Position numbers and translations under genes: made by a program. Below are positions 3,898 through 56,342 of a DNA stretch of 64,000 nt, one piece after another (position 1 is the first letter of the stretch; every line of letters starts with the position of its first letter). The DNA is from Eubacteriales bacterium (lineage in GTDB: Bacteria; Bacillota; Clostridia; Saccharofermentanales; Saccharofermentanaceae). The DNA lies in NCBI GenBank assembly GCA_037143795.1, contig JBAWXZ010000005.1:130527-194526 (forward strand), in the 5' to 3' direction. The notes below the pieces were generated by a model. It was not told where the DNA came from. It saw only the letters and a program-made list of their open reading frames with translations, and did not search any database.

Positions 3898-4124
3898 CGC
3901 CAGAAATCATGAGGTGCCTCGCTCAAAATGAAGCCGCCGGTATTGTCTGCCATTACCCCGGCAGCCTGGTCGGCGATTATGATACGTGCAGCAGTGAAGA
4001 GGAGATTTTCAGAATGATCAGGCATGGCAAAGAAATATGAAAAGCGTCCTGTTCTGCAGACTATTTTTCTCATGGTTTCGCGGACGGTCAGAAGGAACGG
4101 TATAACGTGAATCGAGGATACAAT

Positions 4125-6674
4125 ATGGAGATCAAAGATAAAGTCAGCACAGGGATAAGGGGATTTGACAAGGTTATTGATGATCTGCGTCTCGGGGACA
4201 ATGTCGTCTGGCAGGTCGATGCTATATCCGATTACAAAAAAGTGGTCGAGCCCTATGTTGAACAGGCTCTCCGCGATGGCCGAAACCTGATCTATTTCCG
4301 TTTTGGCAGCCATAAGCCAATACTTCAGGATCACCCGAACATTAAAATATACCGTGTCAGTCCCAAAACGGGTTTTGAGACGTTTGCCACCACCGTGCAT
4401 AACATTATTACTAAAGAGGGGAAAAGGGCGTTTTATGTCTTTGACTGCCTGTCTGACCTGCTTAAACACTGGCATTCCGATCTGATCATCGGTAATTTTT
4501 TCAAAGTAACCTGCCCCTATCTGTATGAACTTGACACGGTAGCGTATTTTGCTATTTTCCGTAATGTGCATACTTTCAGTACCATTGCAGGAATCCGGGA
4601 GACAACGCAGCTTCTTCTGGACTTATACCAGGTCAAAGGCAACTGGTATATTCATCCTTTGCGGGTCTGGCAGAGATATTCGCCGACCATGTTTTTCCCG
4701 CATCTGATCCAGGGACAGGAAGCGATCAGCATTACAGCCAGCGCAGAAGCGGCAGAGCTCTTTTCGAGCATCCACAGGGGTGAAGACCGCCCGGACCACT
4801 GGAACATCATATTCAACAAAGCCAGGGACGCACTTAAGCTCGATGATGAACAGCAGGACAAAACCAAGACACTTCTTCTGTTGATGCTGATGGGCAGCGA
4901 AACAAGGATGCTGCATCTGTGCGAGAAATATTTTACGCTCAAAGACGTCCTGACTATTGCTGCAAGGGAAATCGGAAGCGGACATATCGGCGGAAAGAGC
5001 GTCGGTATGCTGGTGGCAAGAAAAATACTGGAGGTGGAAGGGAAAGATCGCTATATGCCCTTTCTCGAATCCCATGACTCCTTTTATATTGGAACTGATG
5101 TTTTCTATACCTATGTTGTTCAAAACGGATGGTGGCGGCTTCGCACCATACAGAAGACGGTGGATGGCTATTATGCCAAAGCGCCTGAACTCAAGGAAAA
5201 ACTTATGCACGGATCATTTCCTGAGAATATTCAGGAACAATTCGTCAGAATGCTTGAATATTTCGGTCAGTCGCCGCTTATCGTAAGATCGAGTTCCCTT
5301 CTTGAAGATAATTTCGGCAACGCATTTGCAGGCAAGTATGAGAGCGTTTTCTGTGCGAACCAGGGTACTCCGGGCGAACGTTATGCGGCATTCTCCCAGG
5401 CAGTCCGCACGGTATATGCCAGCACGATGAACCCGGACGCCCTGGCTTACCGGATGAACCGCGGACTCTTCGACAAAGACGAGCAGATGGCAATTCTTGT
5501 GCAGCGTGTATCCGGTGACTACCACCAGGATGATTTTTTCCCGCATGCCGCAGGGGTCGGGAATTCCTCCAATTTATATGTCTGGGACAAATCCGTAGAC
5601 ATGGAAGCAGGGATGCTCCGACTGGTTTTCGGACTCGGGACCCGGGCCGTAGACCGTACTGTCGGCGACTACGCAAGAATCGTGACCCTCGATGACCCTC
5701 TTCGTATTCCGGTTATGAATTACGAGGATCAGAAAAAATTCTCGCAGCATTATGTGGATGTTATTTCACTTCGTGAAAATATTCTGACGAGCCGGTATTT
5801 TGAAGATATCCTCTCAAAAGATATCAAGGCGGACAAGGGACTATTTGTAAGCATAGACCAGGAATCTGCAAGGCGAATGCGCGAAAAGGGACAGAATAGC
5901 CGCAAGCCGCCCTTTTTGCTTGATTTTCATAAATTACTTAAGGATTCACACTTTCCGGAACTGATGAAAGAAATTCTCACAGAGCTGTCCCGCATATATG
6001 AATATCCGGTGGACATAGAATTTACTGTGAACTTCGGGAAAGACAACAGCTTCAAAGTCAACATCCTGCAATGCCGCCCGCTCCAGACCCGGGGCCTGGG
6101 AAGGGCAATAGAAATGCCGGTAATGGAAAATCCGGAGGACTGCCTGTTTTCAACAAAGGGTAATTTCATGGGTGGAAACATGAGGCTTCCGATTGATTAT
6201 GTCGTGTATGTGCAGGCAAAGGCTTATCTGTCCAGGAGTGAGCAGGAAAAATACGAAGTCGCAAGGCAGATCGGCAGAATTAACAATACACTCAAGGGGC
6301 AGTCCGTTATGCTGATCGGCCCCGGCCGGTGGGGGACCACAACGACCAGTCTCGGGGTTCCCGTGCACTTTTCAGAAATCAGCAATATGTCGGTCGTCTG
6401 CGAAGTCGCATCTACCCATACGGGTATGATGCCGGAACTGTCCTATGGCAGCCACTTTTTTCAGGATCTTGTAGAGACGGGAATTTTCTATGCGGCTATT
6501 TTTGACGGACAGAAGAATGTCGTATTTCATCCGGAACGAGTACTGGAATCGGAAAATGTTCTGACAGGAATCCTTGCCGACAGTGCTGCGTTTTCCGATG
6601 TAATCCATGTCGCCAAAGCAGACGGCATGATAATTTATTCGGATATTCTGACTCAGAGCCTGATATGCAGGTAG
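4125..6674 (+). CDS. PEP/pyruvate-binding (PPDK_N / PEP-synthase-like ATP-grasp) domain protein with an N-terminal KaiC/RecA-like domain
   Basis: IVRSSSLLEDNFGNAFAGKYESV matches the VRSS..ED..SFAGQ signature of the PEP-utilising ATP-grasp domain. The N-terminal ~250 aa resemble KaiC/RecA-type modules (GIRGFDKVIDDLRLGDNVVWQVD). ATG 4125 (MEIKDK) follows a GAGGA RBS; the ORF track begins at GTG 4107. Confidence 0.6.
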   Translation: MEIKDKVSTGIRGFDKVIDDLRLGDNVVWQVDAISDYKKVVEPYVEQALRDGRNLIYFRFGSHKPILQDHPNIKIYRVSPKTGFETFATTVHNIITKEGKRAFYVFDCLSDLLKHWHSDLIIGNFFKVTCPYLYELDTVAYFAIFRNVHTFSTIAGIRETTQLLLDLYQVKGNWYIHPLRVWQRYSPTMFFPHLIQGQEAISITASAEAAELFSSIHRGEDRPDHWNIIFNKARDALKLDDEQQDKTKTLLLLMLMGSETRMLHLCEKYFTLKDVLTIAAREIGSGHIGGKSVGMLVARKILEVEGKDRYMPFLESHDSFYIGTDVFYTYVVQNGWWRLRTIQKTVDGYYAKAPELKEKLMHGSFPENIQEQFVRMLEYFGQSPLIVRSSSLLEDNFGNAFAGKYESVFCANQGTPGERYAAFSQAVRTVYASTMNPDALAYRMNRGLFDKDEQMAILVQRVSGDYHQDDFFPHAAGVGNSSNLYVWDKSVDMEAGMLRLVFGLGTRAVDRTVGDYARIVTLDDPLRIPVMNYEDQKKFSQHYVDVISLRENILTSRYFEDILSKDIKADKGLFVSIDQESARRMREKGQNSRKPPFLLDFHKLLKDSHFPELMKEILTELSRIYEYPVDIEFTVNFGKDNSFKVNILQCRPLQTRGLGRAIEMPVMENPEDCLFSTKGNFMGGNMRLPIDYVVYVQAKAYLSRSEQEKYEVARQIGRINNTLKGQSVMLIGPGRWGTTTTSLGVPVHFSEISNMSVVCEVASTHTGMMPELSYGSHFFQDLVETGIFYAAIFDGQKNVVFHPERVLESENVLTGILADSAAFSDVIHVAKADGMIIYSDILTQSLICR

Positions 6675-12097: not shown

Positions 12098-12874
12098 ATG
12101 AAGTACTATGTGGCTGATGTATTTACGGATACGGTTTTCAAAGGTAATCCGGCCGGCATCTGTATTTTGGATGACTGGCCTGATGATTCGGTGCTTCAGA
12201 AAGTCGCATTCGAGAATAATCTGTCAGAGACGGCTTTCCTTCTGGAACAGGACGGTTATTATGACCTGCGGTGGTTTACTCCGGAGGTGGAAATAGATCT
12301 TTGCGGTCATGCGACGCTTGGCAGTGCATTTGTACTGATGAATTATATCGAGCCCAACTTAATGACAGTCTCTTTCCATACGCAGAGCGGTGTTCTCACG
12401 GTTCGCCGGGATGGGGATGAATTTATAATGGATTTTCCGAGCCGGAGACCAGTTCCCTGTGCGGTTCCGTCCGGCCTTGAGAAGGCGCTTGGCATCCATA
12501 TCCTGGAGACGCATGCTTCCCGTGACCTTCTGGTCCTGGTCGAAAATGAGCAGAAATTAAGGGAGATGAAGCCGGATTTTCATCTCCTGAAACAAATCAC
12601 AGAATACATGGGCTTTATTGTCACAGCCAAAGGAGAAGACTGTGATTTTGTATCGCGCTTCTTTGTGCCCGGTGCCGGGATCAATGAGGACCCTGTTACC
12701 GGTTCATCCCACTGCACACTGATTCCGTTCTGGAGCGAAATTCTAGGTAAAAAAGAGATGCTCGCCAGGCAATTGTCACTTCGCGGCGGAAGGATTTCCT
12801 GCAGGGAATGCGGGGAACGAGTGGAAATCAGCGGCGAGGCGGTGCTGTATATGCGCGGCGAGATACTGATTTGA
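12098..12874 (+). CDS. PhzF-family phenazine-biosynthesis-like isomerase
   Basis: The N-terminus MKYYVADVFTDTVFKGNPAGICIL is the hallmark of the PhzF/DAP-epimerase-like fold. 258 aa. Confidence 0.8.
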   Translation: MKYYVADVFTDTVFKGNPAGICILDDWPDDSVLQKVAFENNLSETAFLLEQDGYYDLRWFTPEVEIDLCGHATLGSAFVLMNYIEPNLMTVSFHTQSGVLTVRRDGDEFIMDFPSRRPVPCAVPSGLEKALGIHILETHASRDLLVLVENEQKLREMKPDFHLLKQITEYMGFIVTAKGEDCDFVSRFFVPGAGINEDPVTGSSHCTLIPFWSEILGKKEMLARQLSLRGGRISCRECGERVEISGEAVLYMRGEILI

Positions 12875-14127
12875 GTATCGGATATGCATGTCTGTCCGTC
12901 GGTGTACCAAACACGGATTTCAGAACCTGCGTTATGAAAAATGCCGGGGAAGAACGCCTGATGGAGGTCACTGCACAGAATCTTGCAGCCCTCGAAAACC
13001 TGATAGATTATAATTCCCAAAATGATATACGGCTCTTCCGGATCAGTTCCGATATAATCCCTTTTGGATCAAGCCCTGTAAATTCGCTTGCTTGGTGGGA
13101 TCTTTTCGCGCCTTCCTTATCACGGATCGGAGACAAAATCCGTGCCGCCGGCATGCGGGTCTCCATGCATCCGGGACAATACACTGTCCTCAATTCGCCG
13201 ACGGACGATGTTGTGGAACGTGCAGTTGCTGATCTTGCCTATCACGCACGGTTTCTTGATTCCCTGTGTACGGGGCCTGAAAATAAAATCATACTCCATA
13301 TCGGCGGCGTCTATGGTGATAAGGATGAAGCAATACGGCGTTTTACGGACAGGTACGAATGCCTCGAGGATGCCGTCAAGAGACGTCTGGTGCTCGAAAA
13401 TGACGAAAAATCATACAACATATGCGATGTGCTGAAAATTGCCCGAATGGTCGGCGCCCCCGCGGTTTTTGACAACCTGCACCATGCGATTCATCCCTGC
13501 ATGGAAGCTGGCTGTGAAGGAGATTGGATCGAATCATGCAAATCGACATGGAAACCGATTGATGGACGTCAGAAGATACATTATTCACAGCAGGAAAAAG
13601 GTAAGCGGACCGGTGCCCATTGCAGCAGTATCAGGATTGACGAGTTCCTCTCCTTCTATAAAAGCGTGCACGGGGAGAACCTCGACATTATGCTGGAGGT
13701 AAAGGACAAGAATCTTTCTGCGGTCAAATGCATCAACTGCACAACCCTTTCTCCGCGCCTGAACCGGCTGGAACTGGATTGGAGCCGATATAAATATCTG
13801 GTCCTTGAGCATGCCCCGGCGATATACCTGCAGATCCGGGAGCTTCTGAAAGACAGAAACGCCTATCCGGCCGTGGAGTTCTATCAACTCATTGAATCTG
13901 CCGCGCTGGAAGAAACCGTTTCTGGCAATGCCGAAAATGCAGCGCTGCATGTATGGGGTTATTTTAAGAAAATTGCAGCACAAAATGAGCAGGAGCAGTT
14001 TTTTCGCCGTCTGGATTTGTACAGGCAGGGACTAAAAGGCTCAGACAACTATAAAAATTACCTGCTTCGCCTCGCTCAAAAATATGATCAGAAGTATCTT
14101 CTGGAGTCACTTTATTTCTATATTTAA
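12871..14127 (+). CDS. uvsE: UV-damage endonuclease (UvsE/UVDE family) with a ~120-aa C-terminal extension
   Basis: The LSIGYACLSVGVPNTDFRTCVMKNA start region and ...HIGGVYGDKDEA..., ...LVLENDEKSYN..., ...FDNLHHAIHP... match the TIM-barrel UVDE metal-site blocks. The start is uncertain: TTG 12871 abuts the phzF stop, while the ORF track offers ATG 12808 overlapping phzF. Confidence 0.75.
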   Translation: MSIGYACLSVGVPNTDFRTCVMKNAGEERLMEVTAQNLAALENLIDYNSQNDIRLFRISSDIIPFGSSPVNSLAWWDLFAPSLSRIGDKIRAAGMRVSMHPGQYTVLNSPTDDVVERAVADLAYHARFLDSLCTGPENKIILHIGGVYGDKDEAIRRFTDRYECLEDAVKRRLVLENDEKSYNICDVLKIARMVGAPAVFDNLHHAIHPCMEAGCEGDWIESCKSTWKPIDGRQKIHYSQQEKGKRTGAHCSSIRIDEFLSFYKSVHGENLDIMLEVKDKNLSAVKCINCTTLSPRLNRLELDWSRYKYLVLEHAPAIYLQIRELLKDRNAYPAVEFYQLIESAALEETVSGNAENAALHVWGYFKKIAAQNEQEQFFRRLDLYRQGLKGSDNYKNYLLRLAQKYDQKYLLESLYFYI

Positions 14128-15952: not shown

Positions 15953-16900
15953 ATGCAGGAGGTGAGGAATATCAGACAGTCAGATGTTGTCCGTGCAGTT
16001 TCGCGAATGCAGGACTATATTGAAGCCCATGTTTCCGAACCGATTACGCTGCATCAGCTGGCCGGGACGGCCGGATACTCGCAGTGGCATTGTGAACGGA
16101 TTTTCAGGGAGCTGACCGGGAAATCACCATTCGAGTACATCAGGGCACTTCGACTTTCGAAAGCTGCTTTGATTCTGCGCGAAGGCCGGAGCAAAGTCAT
16201 TGATGTTGCATTTGACTTTGTTTTCGATTCCCATGAAGGCTTCACGAAGGCGTTCTCAAGGCAGTTCGGCTTACCGCCGGGCAGGTACAGGCGGGAGACG
16301 CCTGCTATACCGCTGTTCATGCCGTATCGGGTATCCGTAACGCCGGCTTCCCCGGAAAAGGAGAGAAAAAGTATGAGTACTACTGCAAATACCGTGTTTG
16401 TTCAGGTTGTGGAACGCCCCGAGAGACAGATAATGTTAAAAAGAGGCGTAAAGGCCACCGACTACTATACCTACTGTGAAGAAGCAGGGGATAAAGAAGG
16501 GTGTGAAGCCTCGGAAAAAATCTGGGGTGTTCTTTCCAGTGTGAAGGAAGCGCTTTATGAACCGATCGGCATGTGGCTTCCCCCGAAGATGATTCCGGAA
16601 GGCACCTCCCAATATGTACAGGGAGTCGAACTTCCGCTTGACTATCACAAACCCCTGCCGGAAGGTTATGAGATGATTATTGCGCCTCCCTGCAAAATGA
16701 TGGTCTTCCAGGGTCCGCCTTACAAGGACGAAGATTATGAAGATGCGATTTCCGACATCTGGGAACTTATGAAAACTTACGATCCGAAACTGTACGGATA
16801 TGAATGGGCAGACGATGAAGCCCCGCGTTTTCAGCTCGCGCCGATGGGATACCGGGGATATATTGAAGCCCGCCCTGTTCGTCCGGTCAATCCCGTCTGA
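15953..16900 (+). CDS. AraC-family transcriptional regulator with a C-terminal GyrI-like effector-binding domain
   Basis: N-terminal AraC HTH (ITLHQLAGTAGYSQWHCERIFRELTGKSPFEYIRALRL). The ~190-aa C-terminus is typical of GyrI-like small-molecule-binding domains. Confidence 0.8.
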   Translation: MQEVRNIRQSDVVRAVSRMQDYIEAHVSEPITLHQLAGTAGYSQWHCERIFRELTGKSPFEYIRALRLSKAALILREGRSKVIDVAFDFVFDSHEGFTKAFSRQFGLPPGRYRRETPAIPLFMPYRVSVTPASPEKERKSMSTTANTVFVQVVERPERQIMLKRGVKATDYYTYCEEAGDKEGCEASEKIWGVLSSVKEALYEPIGMWLPPKMIPEGTSQYVQGVELPLDYHKPLPEGYEMIIAPPCKMMVFQGPPYKDEDYEDAISDIWELMKTYDPKLYGYEWADDEAPRFQLAPMGYRGYIEARPVRPVNPV

Positions 16901-19670: not shown

Positions 19671-20222
19671 TCAACCGCCGTTTTTCCGGCTTTGACTCTC
19701 GAAAAACAAACGCAGGTTCTCCGGCAGCACATAGGCAGCTTCTGTTTTGGATTGCTCTGATTTTGATCCGTATACTTCCTTTAGAATTGCATTAACAATC
19801 ATCCCTTTGGGCGGTGAATCGTAATGATTCCCTTCGTATGTGAAAACACGGCAGTCGACGCTGTCTCCGCACAAGGTTCCGCAATCGGTACAGTTGGATT
19901 CCGAGACATCCACTTCGATGTCTTTTCCGTTGATCCGGATGGTGGGTGAACTCATAAATGCATATTTTTCGGCAAGGGCAGCTGAAGTTATGTTCACTTT
20001 ATTTATTACTGCATCATATCCTGCGGATGAAAGCACAGAAGACACATCCGATATGGCATCGTCCAGATTACTGTCGGTTCCCTGGCATCTTTCACACACA
20101 CTCAGATCCAGATACAGAAAATCAATCGTAATTTTTTTCTTTTCAGGCACCGGTGTGCAGCAGCCGGAACCTTTGCAGCAGCCTGTGTTTTGATCCGGCA
20201 TATTACTCGCCTGCCTTTTCAA
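19671..20222 (-). CDS. Cys-rich DUF2703-like protein (possible metallo(id)-chaperone of the ars-like operon)
   Basis: Cysteine clusters (GCCKGSGCCTP near the N-terminus; CERCQG; CTDCGTLCGDSVDC). It sits last in the arsR-permease-thioredoxin operon. Confidence 0.45.
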   Translation of the reverse strand: MKRQASNMPDQNTGCCKGSGCCTPVPEKKKITIDFLYLDLSVCERCQGTDSNLDDAISDVSSVLSSAGYDAVINKVNITSAALAEKYAFMSSPTIRINGKDIEVDVSESNCTDCGTLCGDSVDCRVFTYEGNHYDSPPKGMIVNAILKEVYGSKSEQSKTEAAYVLPENLRLFFESQSRKNGG

Positions 20223-20445
20223 TTAACTTAGTGATTTCACCCGTCTTTAGTACTTTGCCGAAAGAAACGACCGTTTCATCAATAACAAGGGCCGGGGTCG
20301 ACATTACACCGAAAGAAGCGATCTCAGAAAAATCGGTTACTTTAATGATTTGGGCTTCCATTCCAAGGACTGCCAGTGCTTCTTTTGTGTTTTCTGCCAG
20401 GGTCATGCATTTTTTGCATCCGGAACCAAGAATTTTAATAATCAT
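20203..20445 (-). CDS. Thioredoxin-family small redox protein (redox-active disulfide protein 2 type)
   Basis: 80 aa. The motif MIIKILGSGCKKCMTL is CxxC in a thioredoxin-fold context. Confidence 0.75.
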   Translation of the reverse strand: MIIKILGSGCKKCMTLAENTKEALAVLGMEAQIIKVTDFSEIASFGVMSTPALVIDETVVSFGKVLKTGEITKLIEKAGE

Positions 20446-20519
20446 AGATTTGTTCTCCTTTATATGTTTTGACAGGTGTCGGAATTGTTTTTTGAAAATA
20501 TTATTACCAGGAAAAGCAA

Positions 20520-21524
20520 TTACATAAGAAATGAACCGAAGGCATTAAACGCATATCCGATGATGATGATCCCTGCGGTCACGATGCCTACAAAAGTGAT
20601 TAGAAGCTTTGATCTGACTACTTTTTTAAGCATTATGATGGAGGGAAGGGACAAAGCGGTAACCGCCATCATGAAGGACAGAGCCGTACCAAGTCCGACG
20701 CCCTTGCCGACGAGGGCTTCTGCGATCGGAAGCGTACCGAAAATATCAGCGTACATCGGAACACCCACGAAGGTAGCAAGAAGGACGGAATACCATTTGT
20801 CCTGTCCGAGAACAGCCGTGACAATATCCTGGGGAATCCAATTGTGAATGGCCGCACCGATTCCTACACCAATCAGGATATAAAGCCAGACCTTTTTGAC
20901 TATGCCCAGCACCTGTTCCACAGAGAAGTCGATCCTGTCTTTTTTGGTCAGTTCGGACTGTGCTATTTCGTGAACTTTATTGCTGAACACAAAGGGCTCG
21001 ACATACTTTTCCATTTTGAGTTTGCTGATTATCGTTCCTGCTGTGACGGCCAGCAGGACGCCGACAATCACATACGCCAGCGCTATTTTCCAGTTAAAAA
21101 TGCTGGCAAGAAGAAGTACGGACGCAAGATCTACCAGAGGGGAAGAGATAAGAAAGGAAAATGTGACGCCAAGCGGAAGGCCTGCATTGGTAAACCCAAT
21201 AAAGAGCGGTATGGATGAGCAGGAGCAGAAAGGTGTAACCGTCCCTAAAAGGGCACCGAGAATATTGGCTGTAATTCCGTTGAACCGCCCGAGTATCTTA
21301 CGGGTGCGTTCCGGCGGAAAGAAGCTCTGTATATAAGAGATCACGAAAATCAGTACGGACAGCAGAATGAATATCTTGATCGTGTCGTAGATAAAAAAAT
21401 GAATACTGCCGCCGAGGCGCTGTGTTACATCCAGTCCGAAAACCTTCTCGACAAGAAGTTTTATCAGGTCGGACAGCCACTGCATTTTTAGTAGTTGATC
21501 ATTGAGCCATTCAAGTACAATCAT
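20520..21524 (-). CDS. arsP: Permease of the ArsP / DUF318 family (organoarsenical-efflux-permease-like)
   Basis: Polytopic membrane protein containing TPFCSCSS, which matches the conserved ArsP TPFcSCSS signature (identified from memory of that family). Confidence 0.6.
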   Translation of the reverse strand: MIVLEWLNDQLLKMQWLSDLIKLLVEKVFGLDVTQRLGGSIHFFIYDTIKIFILLSVLIFVISYIQSFFPPERTRKILGRFNGITANILGALLGTVTPFCSCSSIPLFIGFTNAGLPLGVTFSFLISSPLVDLASVLLLASIFNWKIALAYVIVGVLLAVTAGTIISKLKMEKYVEPFVFSNKVHEIAQSELTKKDRIDFSVEQVLGIVKKVWLYILIGVGIGAAIHNWIPQDIVTAVLGQDKWYSVLLATFVGVPMYADIFGTLPIAEALVGKGVGLGTALSFMMAVTALSLPSIIMLKKVVRSKLLITFVGIVTAGIIIIGYAFNAFGSFLM

Positions 21525-21889
21525 TTATTTATTTCTCCTTTATTCCGGTTCGGAAGCGGACAGAGTTTCTCGTCTGCACAGATACAAATAGATTCCTGGC
21601 CGGAACTGCTGCTGAAACGGTCAAGAAGATCCCTTGCTTCACAAAAATTTGCAGCAATCAGTGAATAACGCATCCAAAGCCCGTCCTTTCGGCTTTTTAC
21701 CAGGCCGCTCTGCGTAAGAATCTTCATATGATAGGAAAGTGTCGGCTGCGATATGTCAAACCGCTCCTGGATTTTACAGGCGCAAAGTTCTCCGTCCTTT
21801 AACATATGAAGGATGGAAAGACGCGTCTCATCCGCTAACGCTTTAAAAACCGGTACACAGGCATTATTATCTGGTTCCAAATCAGTCAC
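21521..21889 (-). CDS. arsR: ArsR/SmtB-family metalloregulator
   Basis: LADETRLSILHMLKDGELCACKIQERFDISQPTLSYHMKILTQSGLV. A winged HTH with a Cys pair (CAC) precedes the recognition helix. Confidence 0.8.
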   Translation of the reverse strand: MTDLEPDNNACVPVFKALADETRLSILHMLKDGELCACKIQERFDISQPTLSYHMKILTQSGLVKSRKDGLWMRYSLIAANFCEARDLLDRFSSSSGQESICICADEKLCPLPNRNKGEINK

Positions 21890-22011
21890 CGCTTTCTCTT
21901 TTGCCTTAATACATCGAAATCTTTCTATATAGTAAACTATACATAGAAAAAATTCAATATAGTTTCGGAAAATTAAGCAGCGATATTCACGCTGATCCTT
22001 TTACGGGTGCA

Positions 22012-22560
22012 TTATTTCAAATTTTCAGCATCTTTGTAAATCCTGCTTACTTCTTCTTTTGACACCAATTTGGATATAAGGAATGCAATGATAATAATTC
22101 CCGGAATGTCGACAAGCAGACGTGTGGCGGCGAATTTGGCTCCGAGAGCTGAAAATTCAAACATAAGCATCGGAATCTTAGTTGTTGACCAGGCACCGAT
22201 GAATATAAGGATATTGCTGAATTTCACGCCTTTTTTCATAAATACGGCGGCAACCGGAAAAGCACCGTAGAGGGGCCCGGCTGCAGCGGACCCAATCAAA
22301 AATGCGAGAAGTATTCCCTTAAGACCGGAACCTTCGCCCATGTATTTGATCATCGTCTCACGGGGAATCCAGACATCAAGAAGTCCCAGAAGGATAAATA
22401 CGGGCGGAATAATCAGGAGCATCTGGATTAACTGGCTGCCGGCATTGCCGAGTGCCTTTATGCCGAGATCATAATTGAACAGTGTAAAGACAGCCAGACC
22501 GGCCGAGGTCAGGATGAAAGCACGATATCTTATCAGGAGCGCGGGCATCTTCAGCTTCAT
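22012..22560 (-). CDS. Two-component membrane permease complex, subunit B (DUF318 half-permease)
   Basis: Polytopic. It overlaps the upstream subunit by 4 nt. Split-permease pairs of this type (for example Streptococcus SMU_746c/747c) are known. Confidence 0.55.
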   Translation of the reverse strand: MKLKMPALLIRYRAFILTSAGLAVFTLFNYDLGIKALGNAGSQLIQMLLIIPPVFILLGLLDVWIPRETMIKYMGEGSGLKGILLAFLIGSAAAGPLYGAFPVAAVFMKKGVKFSNILIFIGAWSTTKIPMLMFEFSALGAKFAATRLLVDIPGIIIIAFLISKLVSKEEVSRIYKDAENLK

Positions 22561-23039
22561 TTTTTCACCGCCAGTCCGATTACCAGGGCAACTAGAAAAG
22601 AAAAGGCAAAAGCGAGTATATTCCGGATGATTGTGACTTTTTTGCCGAAATACTTGATTTCAACAGGCATTGTCACAACGCCGACCATCATGAGCGTTGA
22701 TACAAACGCACCGATCTGCATATATCCTGCGCCTCCTGCAAGCAGCATGGCGGCTGTTGGGAAAGCAATGAATCCCGGAATCAGCGTAATGGATCCGATG
22801 ACGGAGGCCAGAAGCACCCCGTACCAGCCGGAATCCTTACCGATCAATTTTGAAATGGCACCCGGATTCAGGACAGCAAGAAGCAGGCCGACCAGAAGCA
22901 GTACGACAAGAAGCTGCGGCAGGATGTTTTCAAAAGCCTTCCATGCCTTCTTTAAAGCCAGTCCGGTTTTTCTCCTGTCTTTGAAAAAAGATGCCGCTAA
23001 GAGTATGACGGTAATCCCATAAAAAATGTAAGTGTCCAC
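22557..23039 (-). CDS. Two-component membrane permease complex, subunit A
   Basis: 160 aa with ~4-5 TM helices. Translationally coupled with the 22012 gene. Confidence 0.55.
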   Translation of the reverse strand: MDTYIFYGITVILLAASFFKDRRKTGLALKKAWKAFENILPQLLVVLLLVGLLLAVLNPGAISKLIGKDSGWYGVLLASVIGSITLIPGFIAFPTAAMLLAGGAGYMQIGAFVSTLMMVGVVTMPVEIKYFGKKVTIIRNILAFAFSFLVALVIGLAVKK

Positions 23040-23160
23040 GCCGCCCCTCCTGACTGCATTTCTATAAGATCAGTATAATAGAAAATATGCCATTGAAACA
23101 AATTCGGTTTTTTCTTATATAAATAATAGTGTTAAACTGTTAAAAACGGGGGATTTACAT

Positions 23161-25041
23161 ATGATGGAAAAAAGAGAATCTGCACCTGGGCAATATGATG
23201 TGATCGTCATCGGCGGCGGATTGTCAGGCCTGACAGCCGGCAGCCTGCTTGCCAAAAGGGGACTTCACGTTGCTGTTATTGACAAGAGCTACAACCCGGG
23301 AGGGTCCTGCGGAACATTCAAAAGGGATAATGTAATCTTTGACCAGGGTGCGTCGATGCTGTTCGGATTCGGAGAGAAGGGATTCAACTCACACCGTTTT
23401 GTGATGAACTGCCTTGAAGAGCCGATCGACATCATCAAACACGACGCCCTCTACTGTGTGAATTACTTGGGCCACAGGATTATTTTCTGGGCGGATGTGC
23501 AGCTTTTTGCCGAAGAGCTGTCCAAGGTCTTTCCATTAGAAAAAGAGAATATTATTCGTTTTTATAAAGACTTAGGCATAATGTATCAGCATGTCATGGT
23601 AGAGAATCCGGCCTTTACGACTCCGGATGAAGTCGAACCTGCAATAGGACTGCGGCAACTGCTCAGCCACCCCGTCTCCTATGCGAAGTTTCTGGGCCTC
23701 ATGAACCGAAGTGCCAAAAGCCTTATGTCGAAATATTTTAAAGATCCTGCTATTTTTAAATTCTTTGACAAGCTTACCTCGACATACTGTTACACGACGG
23801 TTGAAGAAACGCCGGCAGTCCTTGCGGCTGTAATGTTCGTAGACAATCATACAGGCGGAAGTTTCTACCCGGCCGGTTCCACGGTATTTCTTCCCGGAAG
23901 GCTCGAAAAAGTCATTGAAGAGAATATCGGAGATATGATCCTTGAAAAAGAAGTCGTACGGATCCTTTTCACGGAAGGCAAACCTTCGGGTGTCGAACTT
24001 CTGTCCGGCGAAAAAATATATGCCGCCAATCTGATTTACTCCGGAAACGTATGGAGCCTGTATGACGGACTGATAGACCGGAAATATCTCCCGGAGGAAC
24101 GGATTGATTGGGCACGTAAGCTTATTCCGACATATCCGAGCGTGGTTCTCTATGCGTATGTCGACAAATCCGTCATTCCGGAGGATACACTGCCGATTGA
24201 AATGCTTGTCGGCAATCCCGACAGAATTGATGAGAGTGAGGTCACTGTATATATCTACAGTATTGACGATTCAACACTCTGTCCGGAGGACGGACATGTT
24301 ATGGTGGTTATCGGACCAACATTGGACGACTGGGACAGTGAAGATATATCGGAATACGAGGCGCATAAGGAAAGGGAAAAAGAACGCCTTACCCTTGTCC
24401 TTGAAAAACGTTTCCCCGGTTTTCAAAAAGCAATCAGGTATTCCGAATTAGCCTCACCGAAAACACTGACACGGTATGCCAATAAATATCACGGTGCGGT
24501 TGCGGGCCCGAAGCAAATGATCGGGCAGCATATGTTCAAACGCCTCCACACCAAAAGCGAATGGGATACATTATTTTATTGCGGGGAATCAACCGTTATG
24601 GGAACCGGTACACCGACCGTAACGGTTTCCGGACTGTCGGCCGCCAATGCCATACTGAAAAAGAAAGGGCTTGCACCGTATGTTTTCAGTAAGGATATGA
24701 AAAATTATGTGAATATCGTTGCCAAAAACACCGGCTCGGAATACTTAAACCTCAATTATCCGGAAGAGGTGCGCGTAATGATGTTGAAAGCATCCCGCTG
24801 CCAGTACTGTGAAGATGCAGCATGCATGAAGAATACTTCACTGGACATCAGGGGTATCATGAGACGTCTTACTGTCGGGAATACTGCAGGAGCGAAAAAA
24901 ATCGTAAATAAATACATTACGCAGAAAGTAAATCACGCAGCAGCCCTTGAAGAAAGTCAAAACTCATGCATCATGGGGGCCATGTACGGCACTCCGGTTG
25001 AAATCAAGACCATAGTTGGATTTTTGAACGAACAGCAATAG
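23161..25041 (+). CDS. FAD-dependent oxidoreductase of the phytoene-desaturase (CrtI/CrtN, COG1233) superfamily, with a ~130-aa Cys-containing C-terminal extension
   Basis: The N-terminal dinucleotide fold is YDVIVIGGGLSGLTAGSLLAKRGLHVAVIDKSYNPGGSCGTF. Then ...DQGASMLFG... typical of amine-oxidase/desaturase-like enzymes. 626 aa. Confidence 0.65.
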   Translation: MMEKRESAPGQYDVIVIGGGLSGLTAGSLLAKRGLHVAVIDKSYNPGGSCGTFKRDNVIFDQGASMLFGFGEKGFNSHRFVMNCLEEPIDIIKHDALYCVNYLGHRIIFWADVQLFAEELSKVFPLEKENIIRFYKDLGIMYQHVMVENPAFTTPDEVEPAIGLRQLLSHPVSYAKFLGLMNRSAKSLMSKYFKDPAIFKFFDKLTSTYCYTTVEETPAVLAAVMFVDNHTGGSFYPAGSTVFLPGRLEKVIEENIGDMILEKEVVRILFTEGKPSGVELLSGEKIYAANLIYSGNVWSLYDGLIDRKYLPEERIDWARKLIPTYPSVVLYAYVDKSVIPEDTLPIEMLVGNPDRIDESEVTVYIYSIDDSTLCPEDGHVMVVIGPTLDDWDSEDISEYEAHKEREKERLTLVLEKRFPGFQKAIRYSELASPKTLTRYANKYHGAVAGPKQMIGQHMFKRLHTKSEWDTLFYCGESTVMGTGTPTVTVSGLSAANAILKKKGLAPYVFSKDMKNYVNIVAKNTGSEYLNLNYPEEVRVMMLKASRCQYCEDAACMKNTSLDIRGIMRRLTVGNTAGAKKIVNKYITQKVNHAAALEESQNSCIMGAMYGTPVEIKTIVGFLNEQQ

Positions 25042-25068
25042 TTATTCCATCAGGAATGAGGAGACAAT

Positions 25069-26187
25069 ATGCCAGCTATAGTGACAATTATCGCCGGACT
25101 TATTGCAGCACTTCTTCTGTTCTGGCGGCATCCTGCCCTACGGAAGATAAGTGATACGAATGAAGGTACAGGTCAAACGGAGACAGCCGCGCTGCCGCCC
25201 AAAATATCAGTAATCATTCCTTCGAGAAATGAAGAATACAATTTGCAGAATATTCTTTCGGATCTTCAAAACCAGGATCTTCCGGCATATGAAATAATTT
25301 GTGTGGATGATGCATCGGAAGACCGGACAGCAGAGGTCATTGGTGCATTCGGAGTGCAGTATGTTGCTGTTATAAGTAAACCCGATGGCTGGGTAGGCAA
25401 ATCGTGGGCTTGTCAGGCCGGTGCGGATCGTGCGTCCGGGGAGTTGCTTCTTTTCATGGATGCAGATGTAAGACTGGATGCATCTGCCCTGCGTAAACTC
25501 GCAGGCACTTATGCAGCGAACCGGGGCGTGATTTCGGTCCAGCCATTCCATCAGGTCATAAGAATATACGAACATTTATCTTTCTTTTTCTCGCTTGTTC
25601 TTCTGGCCGCCAATGGAATCGGCTTCCCGTTCGGCAGGAGAAACATCGGGCTGTTCGGACCGGTTATTCTTGTCTCAAGGGAAGATTATATGCGGATTGA
25701 GGGTCATTATCCGGCTAAAAACAGCATCGTCGACGATCTGGCAATGGGTGAAGCGTTCAAACGCAAGGGGATCCGGCTGTCCCTTTATATGGGCGGGCCG
25801 GATATTTCGTTTCGCATGTACTCAGGAGGCTTTGCGGAACTATGCCAGGGCTGGATCAAAAATTTCGCATCCGGTGCGTTCAGGACGCCGGCTTACCTGA
25901 TCCTGTTCATTATTCTGTGGTTTGGTGCATGTACGGAGGTTGTAATCAGCTTCATCAGGACATTAACACAAGAATCCCTACCCATAACAGCAGCCGGCGC
26001 ATGCCTGTATCTTGCCTGGGCAGTATTCCTCTGGCTGATCTCCCGCAGAGTGGGAAGCTTCGGACTTGGAGCCGCCATGCTGTATCCGTTTCTGCTCGTT
26101 TTCTTTGTTATACTTTTATTGGTATCCCTTTTCAAGAAAGTCTTTGGCAGGACAGTCACATGGAAAGGCCGTAAAATTCAGATGTAG
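25069..26187 (+). CDS. Family-2 glycosyltransferase with a C-terminal TM bundle (CrtQ-like)
   Basis: The N-terminal TM is followed by ISVIIPSRNEEYNL...ICVDDASEDRT (GT-A DxD region). The C-terminal third is hydrophobic. 372 aa. Confidence 0.7.
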   Translation: MPAIVTIIAGLIAALLLFWRHPALRKISDTNEGTGQTETAALPPKISVIIPSRNEEYNLQNILSDLQNQDLPAYEIICVDDASEDRTAEVIGAFGVQYVAVISKPDGWVGKSWACQAGADRASGELLLFMDADVRLDASALRKLAGTYAANRGVISVQPFHQVIRIYEHLSFFFSLVLLAANGIGFPFGRRNIGLFGPVILVSREDYMRIEGHYPAKNSIVDDLAMGEAFKRKGIRLSLYMGGPDISFRMYSGGFAELCQGWIKNFASGAFRTPAYLILFIILWFGACTEVVISFIRTLTQESLPITAAGACLYLAWAVFLWLISRRVGSFGLGAAMLYPFLLVFFVILLLVSLFKKVFGRTVTWKGRKIQM

Positions 26188-26197
26188 AGGTGAATAA

Positions 26198-26719
26198 GTG
26201 CAGATATTTTATCTTCCGGATTCTTGCACGCTGATTCTGTTTTTCCTGCTTTGGCCAGCCTTTCAGGTGACGGCCGCACTTCTTTGCCTTGCAATGGACA
26301 ATTCGCACTTCTCGTACAAATCATTCATTTACCGCAGCAGGAAATGGGAGGATGAAGGGAAAATATATCAGAAGATATTCAAAATTCGCAGCTGGAAAAA
26401 ATACCTGCCGGACGGCGGTGCACTTATGAAAGGCGGATATGCAAAAAGACATTTGCAGACCCTCTCGAAAGAAGGCCTGCAAAGATTCCTTGTTGAATCC
26501 TGCCGTGCCGAATTATCCCACATCCTGGCGATTCTGCCTTTCTGGGTGTTCGGGTTATTTGCGCCGCCCAGAGTCATTCTCTTTATGTTTATTTATTCCA
26601 TGGCCATGAACCTGCCCTGCATAATCACGCAGAGATATAACCGGCCGCGTATCGTCCGCCTGCTTCAGGACGTGGAACGTTCTGAAATCGGCATGTACAG
26701 ATCCACTCCTCCGACATGA
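26198..26719 (+). CDS. Small membrane acyltransferase, CrtO (glycosyl-4,4'-diaponeurosporenoate acyltransferase)-like
   Basis: 173 aa. The segments RAELSHILAILPFWVFG and QRYNRPRIVRLL fit, from memory, the CrtO-family conserved blocks. GTG start with a GAGGTGA RBS. Confidence 0.45.
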   Translation: MQIFYLPDSCTLILFFLLWPAFQVTAALLCLAMDNSHFSYKSFIYRSRKWEDEGKIYQKIFKIRSWKKYLPDGGALMKGGYAKRHLQTLSKEGLQRFLVESCRAELSHILAILPFWVFGLFAPPRVILFMFIYSMAMNLPCIITQRYNRPRIVRLLQDVERSEIGMYRSTPPT

Positions 26720-27558
26720 TTTGAGTCCTCATCAAAGCCCAGATGCTCTTCAAGCCACTGATGCTTCCCGTTGGTATACTTGCTGTCCGACAGCCATCGG
26801 GAAAACCGGTTCCAGGCAGATATGATCTCCCGGCCAAGACTTCCGTCATCACCCCGTTTAACAGAAGTGACTGCATAAAGCCCTCCTTCAAGTGTTTTTG
26901 CCTTTACCAGCGGGTCATCGACAAGTGTATCCCGGTCTATGGTGACACATACTTCGTAGCCGTATTCCCTCTGGTCTTCAGAAACCGGGGAAGGGTTGTT
27001 GTATCCGAAGATCCGTGTTCGCTGCTCATTCATCCTGATCCCGGATGTGCTGAGCCATTTTTTCATAACGGCAAACGCGTTTTCTTCGGGATTTTCCCCG
27101 AAATAGCTGTAATAAGCTGCGCGCATCGGCTCGAGATTCCTGAGCACCTTGATTTCGGGGTATTTTTCTTGAAGGTCTTTATCCTGTGAATCAAAATATT
27201 CGTCCATTACACTCATCCTCTCAAATGAAAATGTTCCCCCGGTTTTCCGGAAATCACTTGGCAAAAATCCTGTTATCCGCCTGAAGGCCCTTGAAAATGA
27301 GTCGGCGCTGTTAAAATCATACTTCGCAGCAAGATCCATCACGCTGTACTGTGTATTTTTAAGATCAGAAGCGGCCAGGCTGGATCGGCGAAGCCGGACA
27401 TATTCTTTTGCCGGATATCCCACAAGAGCAAAAAACATCCGGTAAAACGTTGAAGTCGACATATAGGCTTCGCGGGCTGCCATCTGCAGGTCAACGGTGT
27501 CAAGCAGTCGGCTTTCCAGATATTCGAGGGATCTTTGAATTCTTTCATAATAGTTCAT
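26665..27558 (-). CDS. AraC-family regulator with a GyrI-like effector-binding domain
   Basis: N-terminal AraC HTH (MSTSTFYRMFFALVGYPAKEYVRLRR) and a GyrI-like C-terminus (FGYNNPSP...EYGYEVCV). Confidence 0.8.
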   Translation of the reverse strand: MNYYERIQRSLEYLESRLLDTVDLQMAAREAYMSTSTFYRMFFALVGYPAKEYVRLRRSSLAASDLKNTQYSVMDLAAKYDFNSADSFSRAFRRITGFLPSDFRKTGGTFSFERMSVMDEYFDSQDKDLQEKYPEIKVLRNLEPMRAAYYSYFGENPEENAFAVMKKWLSTSGIRMNEQRTRIFGYNNPSPVSEDQREYGYEVCVTIDRDTLVDDPLVKAKTLEGGLYAVTSVKRGDDGSLGREIISAWNRFSRWLSDSKYTNGKHQWLEEHLGFDEDSNHVGGVDLYMPISERSTS

Positions 27559-54638: not shown

Positions 54639-56342
54639 GTGACAGATATGGACTTGAAATACAATAAATGTACGCATCTCCGGGATTTACGCGCACTAAT
54701 TAATTATTCAGCCGGCAAATATGGCGATAAACCGGCTTTTCGGGAGTTTGACGCCAACCATGAAGTGCTGGAATATTCTTTCAATCAACTTAAAACCGAT
54801 ACGGAGGCTTTGGGCGCAAAACTTGTTGCTGATAACATGGCGGGCCGGCATTTTGCCCTGCTGGGCGAAAGCTCATACGGCTATGTCGTCAGTTACCTGG
54901 CTATGGTGAATTGGGTTGGCGTCATTGTTCCTATTGACAGGGAACTGACTGTCGAAGATATCATTAACCTGCTTAATAAAAGTGACGCTGAAGGCATATT
55001 TTTCTCCAATACATTCGCATCCGTTATTCCGGATATTCTTGCCGCATGTCCGGATATTTCATGCACGGTCAATATCAGTTCAACCGCTCCCAGCTTGAAG
55101 TACCATTCGCTGCATGATTTTATCGAAGCCGGACAATCCCTTATAGATCAGGGATTTACTTCTTATCAGGACACGGATCTGGATGTTGATAAGCTCTGCA
55201 CAATTCTGTTTACATCAGGAACGACAGGCGCTAATAAGGGCGTAATGCTCTGCCACAGGAATCTGACAACCTGCCTGTTTGCGGCCATGTCACTTTTTGT
55301 TTTGCCGGAAACCAGTTTTTCCGTACTCCCGATCAACCATTCATATGAATTTAATATTCATGTCCTTGGCAGCATATACGGGGGAGCTGCCCTGTGTTTC
55401 AACGATTCCATCAAGCACGTCAAAGAGAATCTGCAGATTTTTAAGCCGCAGATGAGCCTTATGGTGCCCATGATTGTAGAGGGTCTTTATAAGAATATCT
55501 GGAAGGAGGCAGTAAAAAATAATCTGGATAAACACTTGAAATATGGCATCTGGTACAGCAATTTGATCCGCAAAATTGGAATTGATCAGAGAAGACTGTT
55601 TTTCAATCCGATCCACATAAACCTCGGAGGTAATCTGAAGATGATCGTCAGCGGCGGGGCCCCCCTGAACCAGGAACTGGTAAAAGGCTTTGATGATCTG
55701 GGTATAAGCGTGTATAACGGATACGGCATCACCGAATGCTCACCTCTTATATCATCAAACAGTCCCCTGTACAATAAGCCGGGAAGTGTAGGCGTAATAG
55801 TCCCGGGCTGCACGGTCAGAATCGGAGACAAAAATCCGGAAGGCATCGGCGAAATTCAGGTCAAAGGCGATAACGTCATGCTTGGATACTACAAGGATGA
55901 GGATGCGACCAGAAGATCGTTTACTGAGGACGGGTGGTTTAAGACAGGAGACCTTGGATATCAGAATAAAAAGGGGGTTTTATTCATTACAGGACGCCAG
56001 AAGAACTTGATTATCCTTCCCAACGGGAAAAATGTTCATCCGGAAGAACTCGAAGAACACCTGTTCAAACGCATTAATTATATCCGTGAAGCGGTCGTAT
56101 ATGCCCAGGTGGACGAGAAGGGAAACGACAGTATTATTACGGTGATTGCATACCTCGACCAGCAGTTCACAGATGCGATGGGTATGAGCAGGGCAAAGGA
56201 AATGTTTGAAGAAGATGTAAACAGAGTGAACAGGCATCTGGCAGCATATAAGAGAATAACTCAGGCACTGGTTCGTGAGACTGAGTTCGAAAAGACAACA
56301 ACAAAGAAAATCAAGAGAAATGCTATTAACAGGGGGGTGTAA
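54639..56342 (+). CDS. AMP-dependent synthetase/ligase (fatty-acyl-AMP ligase or acyl-ACP synthetase type)
   Basis: AMP-binding core FTSGTTGANKGVMLCHRNL and YGITE...; then GWFKTGDLG and the PNGKNVHPEELEE C-terminal subdomain. 567 aa. Confidence 0.8.
   Translation: MTDMDLKYNKCTHLRDLRALINYSAGKYGDKPAFREFDANHEVLEYSFNQLKTDTEALGAKLVADNMAGRHFALLGESSYGYVVSYLAMVNWVGVIVPIDRELTVEDIINLLNKSDAEGIFFSNTFASVIPDILAACPDISCTVNISSTAPSLKYHSLHDFIEAGQSLIDQGFTSYQDTDLDVDKLCTILFTSGTTGANKGVMLCHRNLTTCLFAAMSLFVLPETSFSVLPINHSYEFNIHVLGSIYGGAALCFNDSIKHVKENLQIFKPQMSLMVPMIVEGLYKNIWKEAVKNNLDKHLKYGIWYSNLIRKIGIDQRRLFFNPIHINLGGNLKMIVSGGAPLNQELVKGFDDLGISVYNGYGITECSPLISSNSPLYNKPGSVGVIVPGCTVRIGDKNPEGIGEIQVKGDNVMLGYYKDEDATRRSFTEDGWFKTGDLGYQNKKGVLFITGRQKNLIILPNGKNVHPEELEEHLFKRINYIREAVVYAQVDEKGNDSIITVIAYLDQQFTDAMGMSRAKEMFEEDVNRVNRHLAAYKRITQALVRETEFEKTTTKKIKRNAINRGV

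Follow-up and report, generated by a model that had tools for sequence, protein, structure and literature searches.

Within a 64-kb stretch of DNA from an Eubacteriales bacterium (contig JBAWXZ010000005.1; hereafter the window), we read three open reading frames (ORFs) together with their flanks: genes for a flavoenzyme of the CrtI/CrtISO superfamily with a predicted iron–sulfur (Fe–S) tail, a membrane glycosyltransferase of family 2 (GT2) and a small membrane acyltransferase of the CrtO family (Table 1; GenBank MEI8199601.1 and MEI8199603.1, proteins of a metagenome-assembled genome). They belong to a widespread, so far uncharacterised module with a bearing on carotenoids in anaerobes and on heliorhodopsin. 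The original prediction, made from the letters of the sequence, had placed three co-directional genes at 23161–26719, and all three ORFs are found there on the plus strand. Because the gaps between them measure only 27 nucleotides (nt; oxidoreductase to GT2) and 10 nt (GT2 to CrtO), and each gene is preceded by a Shine-Dalgarno sequence of its own, the trio forms a single operon; the ribosome-binding sites read GGAGA for the GT2, 27 nt past the upstream stop codon, and AGGTGA for CrtO, before a GTG start 10 nt past the GT2 stop codon. A candidate promoter-like site precedes the operon and keeps its −10 region in an 86%-identical relative (L088; L numbers denote related loci), while regional counts of such sites are not above shuffled expectation. 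No Rfam match, to a riboswitch or other RNA element, was obtained anywhere in the window. The observation that started this work is confirmed; the interpretation first placed on it is supported in part.

Table 1. Positions of the operon, its domains and other features (window coordinates unless a locus is named)
Feature	Position	Strand	Details
Flavoenzyme, CrtI/CrtISO superfamily, C-terminal Fe–S tail	23161–25041	+	626 amino acids (aa); anchor gene of the module
FAD-binding Amino_oxidase/CrtISO-like catalytic domain	23194–24669	+	residues ~12–503; GxGxxG motif at start
Predicted C-terminal half-Fer4_20 domain	24709–25038	+	residues ~517–626
Codon of C547	24799–24801	+
Codon of C550	24808–24810	+
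Codon of C555	24823–24825	+
Codon of C603	24967–24969	+
Membrane GT2 glycosyltransferase	25069–26187	+	372 aa
CrtO-family membrane acyltransferase	26198–26719	+	173 aa, GTG start; glycosyl-4,4'-diaponeurosporenoate acyltransferase family
Candidate promoter-like site, CTGACT-18-TATAAT	23050–23079	+	upstream of operon; 10 of 12 consensus matches
UvdE UV-damage endonuclease	12808–14127	+	439 aa; TIGR00629, 193 bits (cut-off 124); loosely linked cluster member
AraC-family protein, N-terminal HTH_18	15953–16900	+	~200 aa unassigned C-terminal half; ~6 kb upstream of operon
AraC (HTH_18) plus Cass2/GyrI-like regulator	26665–27558	−	convergent with operon
Terminator-like hairpin	26483–26452	−	inside the CrtO gene
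PPDK_N protein	4107–6674	+	855 aa
Metal/redox island	19671–23039	−	just upstream of operon
Split ArsP-like permease	22012–22560; 22557–23039	−	two ORFs
Biosynthetic cluster	54639–63996	+	unrelated to operon
PlsY paralogues	L115:12747–13361; L111:2893–3501; L121:8159–8785; L134:1841–2518
Oxidative-stress genes near the module	L025:15047–17613; L002:9360–9899; L006:8185–9816		also downstream in L088 and L089

A distinct flavoenzyme subfamily

The anchor protein of the module matches PF01593 (Amino_oxidase) at 8.6e-20 and 71.9 bits (cut-off 19.8) over residues 21–499, and NAD_binding_8 at 53 bits, with the dinucleotide-binding sequence VIVIGGGLSGL at residues 14–24. Its best NCBIfam model is the carotenoid isomerase TIGR02730, aligned almost from end to end (positions 1–488 of 493) at 238 bits, below that model's equivalog cut-off of 586.9; CrtD (TIGR02733; 145 bits, cut-off 550) and the crtI_fam model (TIGR02734; 109 bits, subfamily cut-off 238.1) are likewise not reached, and among solved folds the protein comes nearest to a CrtD-type desaturase (4rep) and to CrtI (4dgk). 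Since the enzyme is closest to CrtISO yet falls below every curated cut-off, these profile scores place it in a distinct subfamily of the CrtISO/CrtI flavoenzyme superfamily, and not among CrtN-like proteins. The original assignment to a CrtN/CrtI family therefore stands for the CrtI superfamily and falls for CrtN-likeness, CrtISO being the closest relative at 238 bits. Homologues from Lachnospiraceae, Acetobacterium, Dehalococcoidia, Anaerolineaceae and others are ~65% identical to one another, and the tail-bearing family is compact, with about two dozen full-length representatives in a library clustered at 50% identity and a clear score gap separating it from ordinary CrtISO/CrtD-like proteins (~500 aa, ~28% identity).

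What sets the family apart is its C-terminal tail, the extra cysteine-containing domain to which the original prediction had drawn attention. The last 110 residues carry the pattern C547-x2-C550-x4-C555 together with C603, and all four cysteines are invariant in 22 homologues. On the window protein Fer4_20 (PF14691) scores 21.4 bits against a cut-off of 25.8, with four of the eight cysteines of the pattern present. A profile of the tail gave few and weak matches in the PDB, among them NfnB (4ylf_B, E 0.008) and DPD (E 0.11), its top match being an unrelated potassium channel (4hpf_A, E 0.0014).

Longer relatives of 800–980 aa make sense of this remnant. Behind the Amino_oxidase domain they carry a full Fer4_20 (75–95 bits) and Pyr_redox_2, that is, a complete module of the GltD/DPD/NfnB type (NAD(P)H, FAD and two [4Fe–4S] clusters) fused to a CrtISO-like domain; the longest measure 958–980 aa (proteins P0261, P0263, P0282 and P0287; loci L092–L109) and intermediate forms ~800 aa. 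An earlier reading of these 800–980-aa proteins as fusions of oxidoreductase and GT2 proved wrong, the fused parts being Fer4_20 and Pyr_redox_2. In some loci (L096, L102) the long form is duplicated in tandem. An alignment of the tails recovers the canonical eight-cysteine pattern in the long forms, of which the window protein keeps cysteines 1, 2, 3 and 8. As this is the set expected to ligate one cluster, the window tail is best described as a half Fer4_20 domain with a single predicted [4Fe–4S] cluster ligated by C547, C550, C555 and C603.

Fer4_20 plus Pyr_redox_2 modules pass electrons from NAD(P)H through Fe–S clusters to a second flavin. Because the long relatives carry both Fer4_20 and a GltD-type NAD(P)H/FAD domain, the architecture suggests that electrons are fed into the CrtISO-like flavin. 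Biochemical precedent bears on what such a flavin could do: under N2, CRTI performs no desaturation unless a quinone or O2 is supplied (PMC3382138), it isomerises anaerobically when its FAD is reduced (PMC3382138), and CRTISO requires reduced FAD for a non-redox isomerisation (PMC3382138). Given that CRTI needs O2 or a quinone and CRTISO needs reduced FAD, the enzyme is most likely an isomerase or a saturase, and not a desaturase linked to O2 or quinone. The reductive, saturase or RetSat-like role that the original prediction had offered as one of two readings thereby gains real support from the half-Fer4_20 tail and from the GltD-type NAD(P)H/FAD module of the longer relatives.

Glycosyltransferase and acyltransferase

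The GT2 matches PF00535 at 1e-23 and 84.6 bits (cut-off 23.3) and, more distantly, PF13506 (GT21) at 3.7e-7. Its translation contains the DxD motifs VDDASED and MDADV, and it has an N-terminal transmembrane helix and a C-terminal bundle of three to four more. Among curated families, a set of comparators that included no CrtQ model, its nearest are HpnB (99 bits over the full length) and CruG (62 bits); it lies below the equivalog cut-offs of both (379 and 600) and is a member of neither.

The 173-aa protein matches the CrtO profile PF18927 at 5.2e-35 and 120.9 bits (cut-off 27.3) over profile positions 4–122 of 123, with about four hydrophobic helices in the regions ~1–33 and 104–144. Each of the three profiles that the original prediction had named for the trio (PF18927, PF00535 and PF01593) is thus matched above its Pfam threshold, and the likeness it saw to the glycosylate-then-acylate tailoring of staphyloxanthin-type pathways is borne out by the CrtO match and by a GT2 nearest HpnB and CruG. 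By analogy with its family, the CrtO protein would acylate the C6'' hydroxyl of a glycosyl carotenoate. CrtO and GT2 are paired in 31 of the related loci, and in all 31 the CrtO gene lies on the strand of the anchor gene. A terminator-like hairpin is found on the opposite strand within the CrtO gene of the window. We also considered whether the lipocone family 'Wok' might hide a non-canonical carotenoid synthase here; Wok is DUF2238, which neither CrtO nor the recurrent membrane protein M268 (below) matches.

In four loci of 49–63% GC a PlsY-type acyl-phosphate acyltransferase sits between oxidoreductase and GT2, standing in for the CrtO of the window. These proteins score 100–112 bits, under the PlsY equivalog cut-off of 137, and for that reason we regard them as paralogues and not as the housekeeping enzyme. 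Their position suggests that the acylation step has passed to a non-orthologous enzyme, a change that would preserve the glycosylate-then-acylate logic, and it also keeps a non-isoprenoid lipid substrate among the possibilities. The GT2 proteins of these loci score higher than that of the window (HpnB, 156 bits; CruG, 123 bits). One of the four loci, L115, has upstream an S-adenosylmethionine (SAM) methyltransferase with weak CMAS similarity, whose best matches are CpaM, UbiG and similar proteins and not CFA synthase.

Distribution and conserved neighbourhood

Relatives of the oxidoreductase are encoded by at least 452 species representatives, as a scan at one genome per species showed. Isolates among the carriers include Parasporobacterium paucivorans DSM 15970, Acetobacterium bakii DSM 8239, Anaerobium acetethylicum GluBS11 and Trichococcus palustris DSM 9172. 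The best 80 of these 452 carriers are almost all strict anaerobes and include Clostridia, Acetobacterium, Dehalococcoidia, Anaerolineaceae, Thermotogaceae, Coriobacteriia, Sphaerochaeta, Lentisphaerae and Halobacteroidaceae. We clustered the ORFs flanking the oxidoreductase, built hidden Markov models for the recurrent families and counted partners in 81 distinct loci, 39 of them with full flanks. The commonest partner is a second CrtI-family paralogue of ~525 aa that lacks the tail (PARA; 45 of 81), always directly downstream of the oxidoreductase at a median gap of 22 nt, followed by GT2 (36 of 81) and CrtO (31 of 81), both downstream on the same strand, and by M268, a 268-aa membrane protein on either side (27 of 81). 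UvdE occurs within 10 kb in 18 loci, always on the same strand and at a median of 825 nt; a Rieske/VanA_C oxygenase directly upstream, a TetR regulator upstream and heliorhodopsin are each found in nine. The Rieske oxygenase resembles the methyl-oxidising sterol enzyme SdmA (93 bits), and a TspO-fold membrane protein is among the recurrent partners. Full clusters are found, for example, at L039 and L084. M268 had been a candidate Blh/Brp retinal-forming dioxygenase, which its lack of conserved histidines led us to reject.

GT2 and CrtO both adjoin the oxidoreductase in 18 of the 39 full-flank loci, and because these come from several phyla the adjacency is not chance. The order seen in the window, oxidoreductase–GT2–CrtO with no paralogue, recurs in 4 of the 18. 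Of the module's recurrent parts the window holds only the trio and, 9 kb upstream, UvdE. Two close relatives, L088 and L089, are syntenic with it, and L089 keeps UvdE beside a Rieske gene; since the window retains just the trio and a distant UvdE where L089 has kept UvdE and Rieske together, the arrangement reads as an eroded, interrupted copy of a larger, widespread cluster, of which the trio would be the minimal form. DUF6530, flavin reductase, Abhydrolase_5, EamA, UDG, Band_7 and PhzF were set aside as module members, being syntenic in the close relatives and not recurrent in distant loci. A metagenome scan yielded ~40 loci with long or intermediate forms of the oxidoreductase, with GT2 as a partner in seven, CrtO in one, PARA in many, and Rieske and TetR genes besides.

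Several partners connect the module with light or oxygen. In relatives of the window UvdE is fused to a C-terminal DUF1722 (the L025 representative and L089; the window copy was scanned with NCBIfam), the YbgA-type domain of photolyase operons. The annotated start of the window's UvdE overlaps an upstream PhzF-like gene, and the true start probably lies ~20 codons later. Heliorhodopsin (PF18761, 3e-98) is found directly beside the oxidoreductase, mostly 180–290 nt away (median 262 nt), upstream in eight of its nine loci and divergent in seven; the nine comprise seven from Anaerolineaceae (L029, L035, L039, L043, L044, L060 and L075), one from Dehalococcoidia (L008) and one from Trichococcus (L018). 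The published classification of heliorhodopsin neighbours, with its ten groups, does not include this pairing, and the module is absent from published neighbour surveys. On the strength of structure and docking, a recent preprint makes the case that in monoderms heliorhodopsins bind exogenous carotenoids. Oxidative-stress genes turn up repeatedly close to the module in various lineages (not quantified; Table 1) and encode pirin, rubrerythrin–ferredoxin fusions, glutathione peroxidase and hybrid-cluster protein; this fits a context of O2 or light stress. The neighbourhoods as a whole suggest a role for the module in protection against light or oxidative stress.

Search for a backbone synthase and other pathway genes

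A backbone synthase of the SQS_PSY family was sought with the PROSITE signature and with phmmer on six-frame translations, using Staphylococcus aureus CrtM (identical to PDB 4e9u) as the probe. Neither the window nor 1.89 Mb of sequence from more than 120 related loci contains an SQS_PSY or CrtM-like gene (best E 0.27–0.76), and the window shows no PROSITE SQS_PSY signature and no match to the CrtM probe, as the original prediction had already supposed of CrtM and CrtB. The window also has no second CrtI-family paralogue that could complete a CrtN and CrtP pair, no Rieske gene and no heliorhodopsin (PF18761) in its 64 kb; the Aldedh family is missing from the 46 of its 62 ORFs that were scanned with Pfam (16 ORFs unscanned), and no CruF- or CrtC-type hydratase was found.

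Heliobacteria, which are strictly anaerobic Firmicutes, make 4,4'-diaponeurosporene and C16 esters of OH-diaponeurosporene glucoside (PMC7143216), yet crtM is identifiable in neither of the heliobacterial genomes described and the glycosyl- and acyltransferase genes are unassigned (PMC7143216); we found no later resolution of this gap in the literature. A lone 'CrtN' of unclear function is all that anaerobic Clostridia carry (Santana-Molina et al. 2022, PMC9907078), and Eubacterium limosum, which is obligately anaerobic and belongs to the same order as the window organism, has functional but unlinked crtM and crtN (PMC11611032). In view of these three cases, finding no synthase beside the module does not count against carotenoids in this ecological group. 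As for other products, the yellow affinity substance of Clostridium thermocellum was considered and rejected, being an aryl-polyene alkaloid from a different pathway, and the literature on conjugated-linoleate reductases and biohydrogenation offered no usable precedent for a CrtI-like lipid reductase.

Regulators and other genes of the window

The original prediction had proposed that an AraC/GyrI-like regulator at 26665 may sense a hydrophobic ligand. The gene exists, and its end overlaps the 3' end of CrtO by 55 nt (26665–26719); it is present in the closest relative, L088, and absent from L089, with only weak matches near the module elsewhere. Not being conserved beyond L088, it was dropped as a module component and is probably not a dedicated sensor. 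A better candidate for a regulator is the AraC-family protein upstream of the operon, because its orthologues (E ~1e-92) divergently adjoin the oxidoreductase in four Anaerolineaceae loci (L033, L040, L049 and L055); it is also syntenic in L088 and L089. Its conservation across phyla is unusually high for a regulator.

Further away, the window encodes a phosphoenolpyruvate-utilising, rifampicin-phosphotransferase-like PPDK_N protein with 44% identity to an 863-aa protein directly after CrtO in Parasporobacterium (L006:15057–17648); this pairing, seen in no other locus, may be a coincidence. The metal/redox island that ends just before the operon contains DUF2703, Thioredoxin_3, an ArsP_1 permease and ArsR, together with a second ArsP-like permease split into two ORFs, to which unannotated ORFs of 89 and 133 aa at the same position in L089 may correspond. 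Towards the far end lies a small biosynthetic cluster. It encodes an AMP-binding ligase, a protein of 100 aa that may be a carrier, a 4'-phosphopantetheinyl transferase, and an ABC ATPase together with a MacB/FtsX permease of 1083 aa. Two condensation-domain proteins, each standing alone, also belong to it, and the second of them reaches the end of the window.

Proposed pathway and alternative explanations

We propose that the operon directs the synthesis of an acylated glycoside of a polyene or isoprenoid lipid and that its first enzyme is a new, reductively driven Fe–S member of the CrtISO/RetSat fold, a reading to which we assign a probability of about one half. Strictly anaerobic bacteria would use the module to build an acylated glycoside of a carotenoid-like membrane lipid. 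In the first step the FAD of the 626-aa enzyme would be wired to the single [4Fe–4S] cluster of its tail. The long forms would draw electrons from NAD(P)H, and the window enzyme presumably from ferredoxin or a separate partner; the reduced FAD would then act as a CRTISO-type cis–trans isomerase or as a RetSat-like saturase of C=C bonds. Judging by their families, the HpnB/CruG-like GT2 would next add a hexose to a hydroxyl or carboxyl group of the lipid, and the CrtO-family acyltransferase would esterify the sugar with a fatty acid. The backbone would be supplied by an unlinked or unrecognised synthase, or by salvage, and not by a linked synthase.

A number of points weigh against this proposal. 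No carrier of the module has a known substrate, product or pigment, and for carotenoid clusters it is unusual to find no backbone synthase linked in any of more than 120 loci. Oxidoreductase, GT2 and Fer4_20 tail alike score below the curated cut-offs of the families after which they are named, and the direction of electron flow is deduced from domain architecture and thermodynamics. The oxidoreductase occurs with none of its partners in 9 of the 39 full-flank loci, so that its function need not depend on GT2 or CrtO; a fatty-acyl or glycerolipid substrate would account just as well for the PlsY-like acyltransferase and the generic SAM methyltransferase of some loci; the link to heliorhodopsin comes from about three lineages (seven of the nine loci being from Anaerolineaceae) and is absent from the window; and many carriers come from dark digesters.

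A more specific version of the proposal, which we advance only tentatively, is that the product is a carotenoid glycoside ester in the membranes of anaerobic, mostly monoderm bacteria that lack a canonical synthase. If the carotenoids were salvaged, environmental molecules might be re-isomerised or partly saturated by the Fe–S flavoenzyme, glycosylated and acylated to give a membrane-anchored photoprotectant or the exogenous antenna proposed for heliorhodopsin. If they were made in the cell, the module might act downstream of an unrecognised C30 backbone synthase, the same as that missing from heliobacterial genomes. Whichever version held, the 'orphan CrtN-like' genes of anaerobic Clostridia and Chloroflexi would gain their first function, and carotenoid isomerases or saturases driven by ferredoxin or NAD(P)H would be established as a new class.

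Three other explanations compete with a reductively driven tailoring module. The first is a canonical C30, staphyloxanthin-like pathway split over the genome, in which an unlinked crtM, perhaps with crtN, would provide 4,4'-diapophytoene or diaponeurosporene, the 626-aa enzyme would be a CrtN/CrtP-type desaturase or terminal oxidase, and GT2 and CrtO would complete a glycosyl-diaponeurosporenoate ester. CrtO and GT2 do match the tailing steps, a same-order anaerobe with functional crtM and crtN exists in E. limosum (PMC11611032), and in the fuller clusters the paralogue and the SdmA-like Rieske enzyme could between them supply chemistry like that of CrtN and CrtP. We nevertheless judge this pathway unlikely: the enzyme is CrtISO-like and not CrtN- or CrtP-like, and its Fe–S tail and the NAD(P)H module of its relatives argue for electron input, desaturation coupled to NAD(P)+ being, on our reasoning, thermodynamically uphill. 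CrtP-type oxidation, moreover, needs O2, and Acetobacterium, one of the carriers, has to our knowledge no quinones. The paralogue, the Rieske gene and crtM are all missing from the window, as is aldH from its Pfam-scanned ORFs (46 of 62), and SQS_PSY is linked to the module in none of the more than 120 loci.

That same lack of an isoprenoid synthase, in the window and across the related loci, would be explained if the substrate were a membrane lipid of another kind, the flavoenzyme isomerising or saturating fatty acyl double bonds, the GT2 making a glycosyl-diacylglycerol or a glycosyl fatty-acid ester and CrtO acylating the sugar. CrtI-like enzymes act on fatty acyl chains in furan fatty acid synthesis, the oxidoreductase is often found without GT2 or CrtO, the GT2 also matches GT21 (PF13506), and in the four PlsY loci the paralogue takes the place of CrtO, L115 having in addition its CMAS-weak methyltransferase. 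Each of these two neighbours can be read otherwise, the PlsY paralogue lying under the PlsY cut-off and being probably repurposed, and the methyltransferase being generic (CpaM, UbiG) and not a CFA synthase. With the strongest profile affinities of all three proteins pointing to carotenoid and hopanoid enzymes (carotenoid isomerase, HpnB/CruG and CrtO), and with TspO-fold protein, heliorhodopsin and UvdE forming a neighbourhood typical of pigment or light-response loci, we hold a non-isoprenoid substrate to be quite improbable. Least probable to our mind is that the oxidoreductase works alone, reducing exogenous unsaturated compounds or disposing of electrons on them, and that its coupling to a separate GT2–CrtO glycolipid pair is only loose, in which case there would be no single pathway. 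The nine full-flank loci devoid of partners, the long forms, often solitary and equipped with their own NAD(P)H module, and an identity of ~65% across phyla, which suggests a strongly constrained and self-sufficient enzyme, are what such a view would lead one to expect. Wherever GT2 and CrtO are present, however, they lie on the same strand within 3 kb and are often translationally coupled, in several phyla and beside short, intermediate and long forms alike; in the window itself the genes are 27 and 10 nt apart.

Should the reductively driven tailoring module be borne out, it would make testable what the lone CrtI-family genes of strictly anaerobic Clostridia and Chloroflexi do, and how acylated carotenoid glycosides arise without oxygen or an identifiable CrtM. 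For the anaerobic isomerisation or saturation of polyenes, a flavoenzyme of the CrtISO/RetSat fold wired to a DPD/GltD-type Fe–S (and NAD(P)H) module would represent a new architecture, and it could be a useful tool for oxygen-free carotenoid engineering. The proposal would bear, too, on the source of the carotenoid suggested for heliorhodopsin, the tailoring operon being divergent from the heliorhodopsin gene in Anaerolineaceae. As the family has no characterised member among its 452 or more species representatives, annotating thousands of genes would take no more than one expression experiment.

Comparison with known systems

In its gene order the operon recalls crtOPQMN of S. aureus and the C30 glycoside-ester clusters of planctomycetes and Methylobacterium, where a GT2 and then a PF18927 CrtO stand beside CrtI-superfamily flavoenzymes; the shared logic is that a polyene is modified and glycosylated and the sugar then acylated. 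Unlike those clusters, the module has CrtM, HpnCDE or Sqs linked to it in none of more than 120 loci. It differs from them further in that its flavoenzyme is CrtISO-like with an Fe–S tail and not CrtN or CrtP, that AldH is absent from the window ORFs scanned with Pfam, and that strict anaerobes carry it, whereas O2 or a quinone is required by CrtN and CrtP.

Acylated carotenoid glycosides are assembled elsewhere by comparable enzymes. In the myxoxanthophyll pathway (CruF/CruG) and those to salinixanthin and chlorobactene glucoside laurate (CruC/CruD), a hydroxylated carotenoid receives its sugar from a CruG-like GT2 and the sugar is esterified by a membrane acyltransferase, and salinixanthin is an acyl glycoside carotenoid that serves as a rhodopsin antenna. 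The acyltransferase of the module is of the CrtO type, or of the PlsY type in some loci, and not a PlsC-type CruD; its GT2 lies below the CruG cut-off, and no CruF- or CrtC-type hydratase accompanies it. The closest chemical and ecological precedent is that of the heliobacteria (Heliorestis), with their C16:0 and C16:1 esters of OH-diaponeurosporene glucoside (PMC7143216), although heliobacteria have ordinary crtN genes. Heliorestis convoluta makes glucoside esters and Heliomicrobium modesticaldum does not.

The first enzyme combines features that are otherwise found apart. CRTISO/CrtH gives the best profile match (TIGR02730), and its need for reduced FAD fits an electron-input module; vertebrate RetSat has the same fold and saturates C=C bonds, which also fits electron input. 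The module enzyme differs from both in its score (238 bits against an equivalog cut-off of 587) and in its ~28% identity to ordinary family members, and we know of no CRTISO or RetSat with a Fer4_20 Fe–S domain or a fused GltD-type reductase. Its long relatives share the complete Fer4_20 and Pyr_redox_2 electron-input module with DPD, GltD and NfnB, of which the window protein has half of Fer4_20 (four of eight cysteines) and no Pyr_redox_2. In DPD, electrons from NADPH travel by way of Fe–S clusters to a second flavin, by which a C=C bond is reduced; the acceptor there is a DHODH-like FMN domain, whereas in the module's long forms it would be a CrtISO-like FAD domain.

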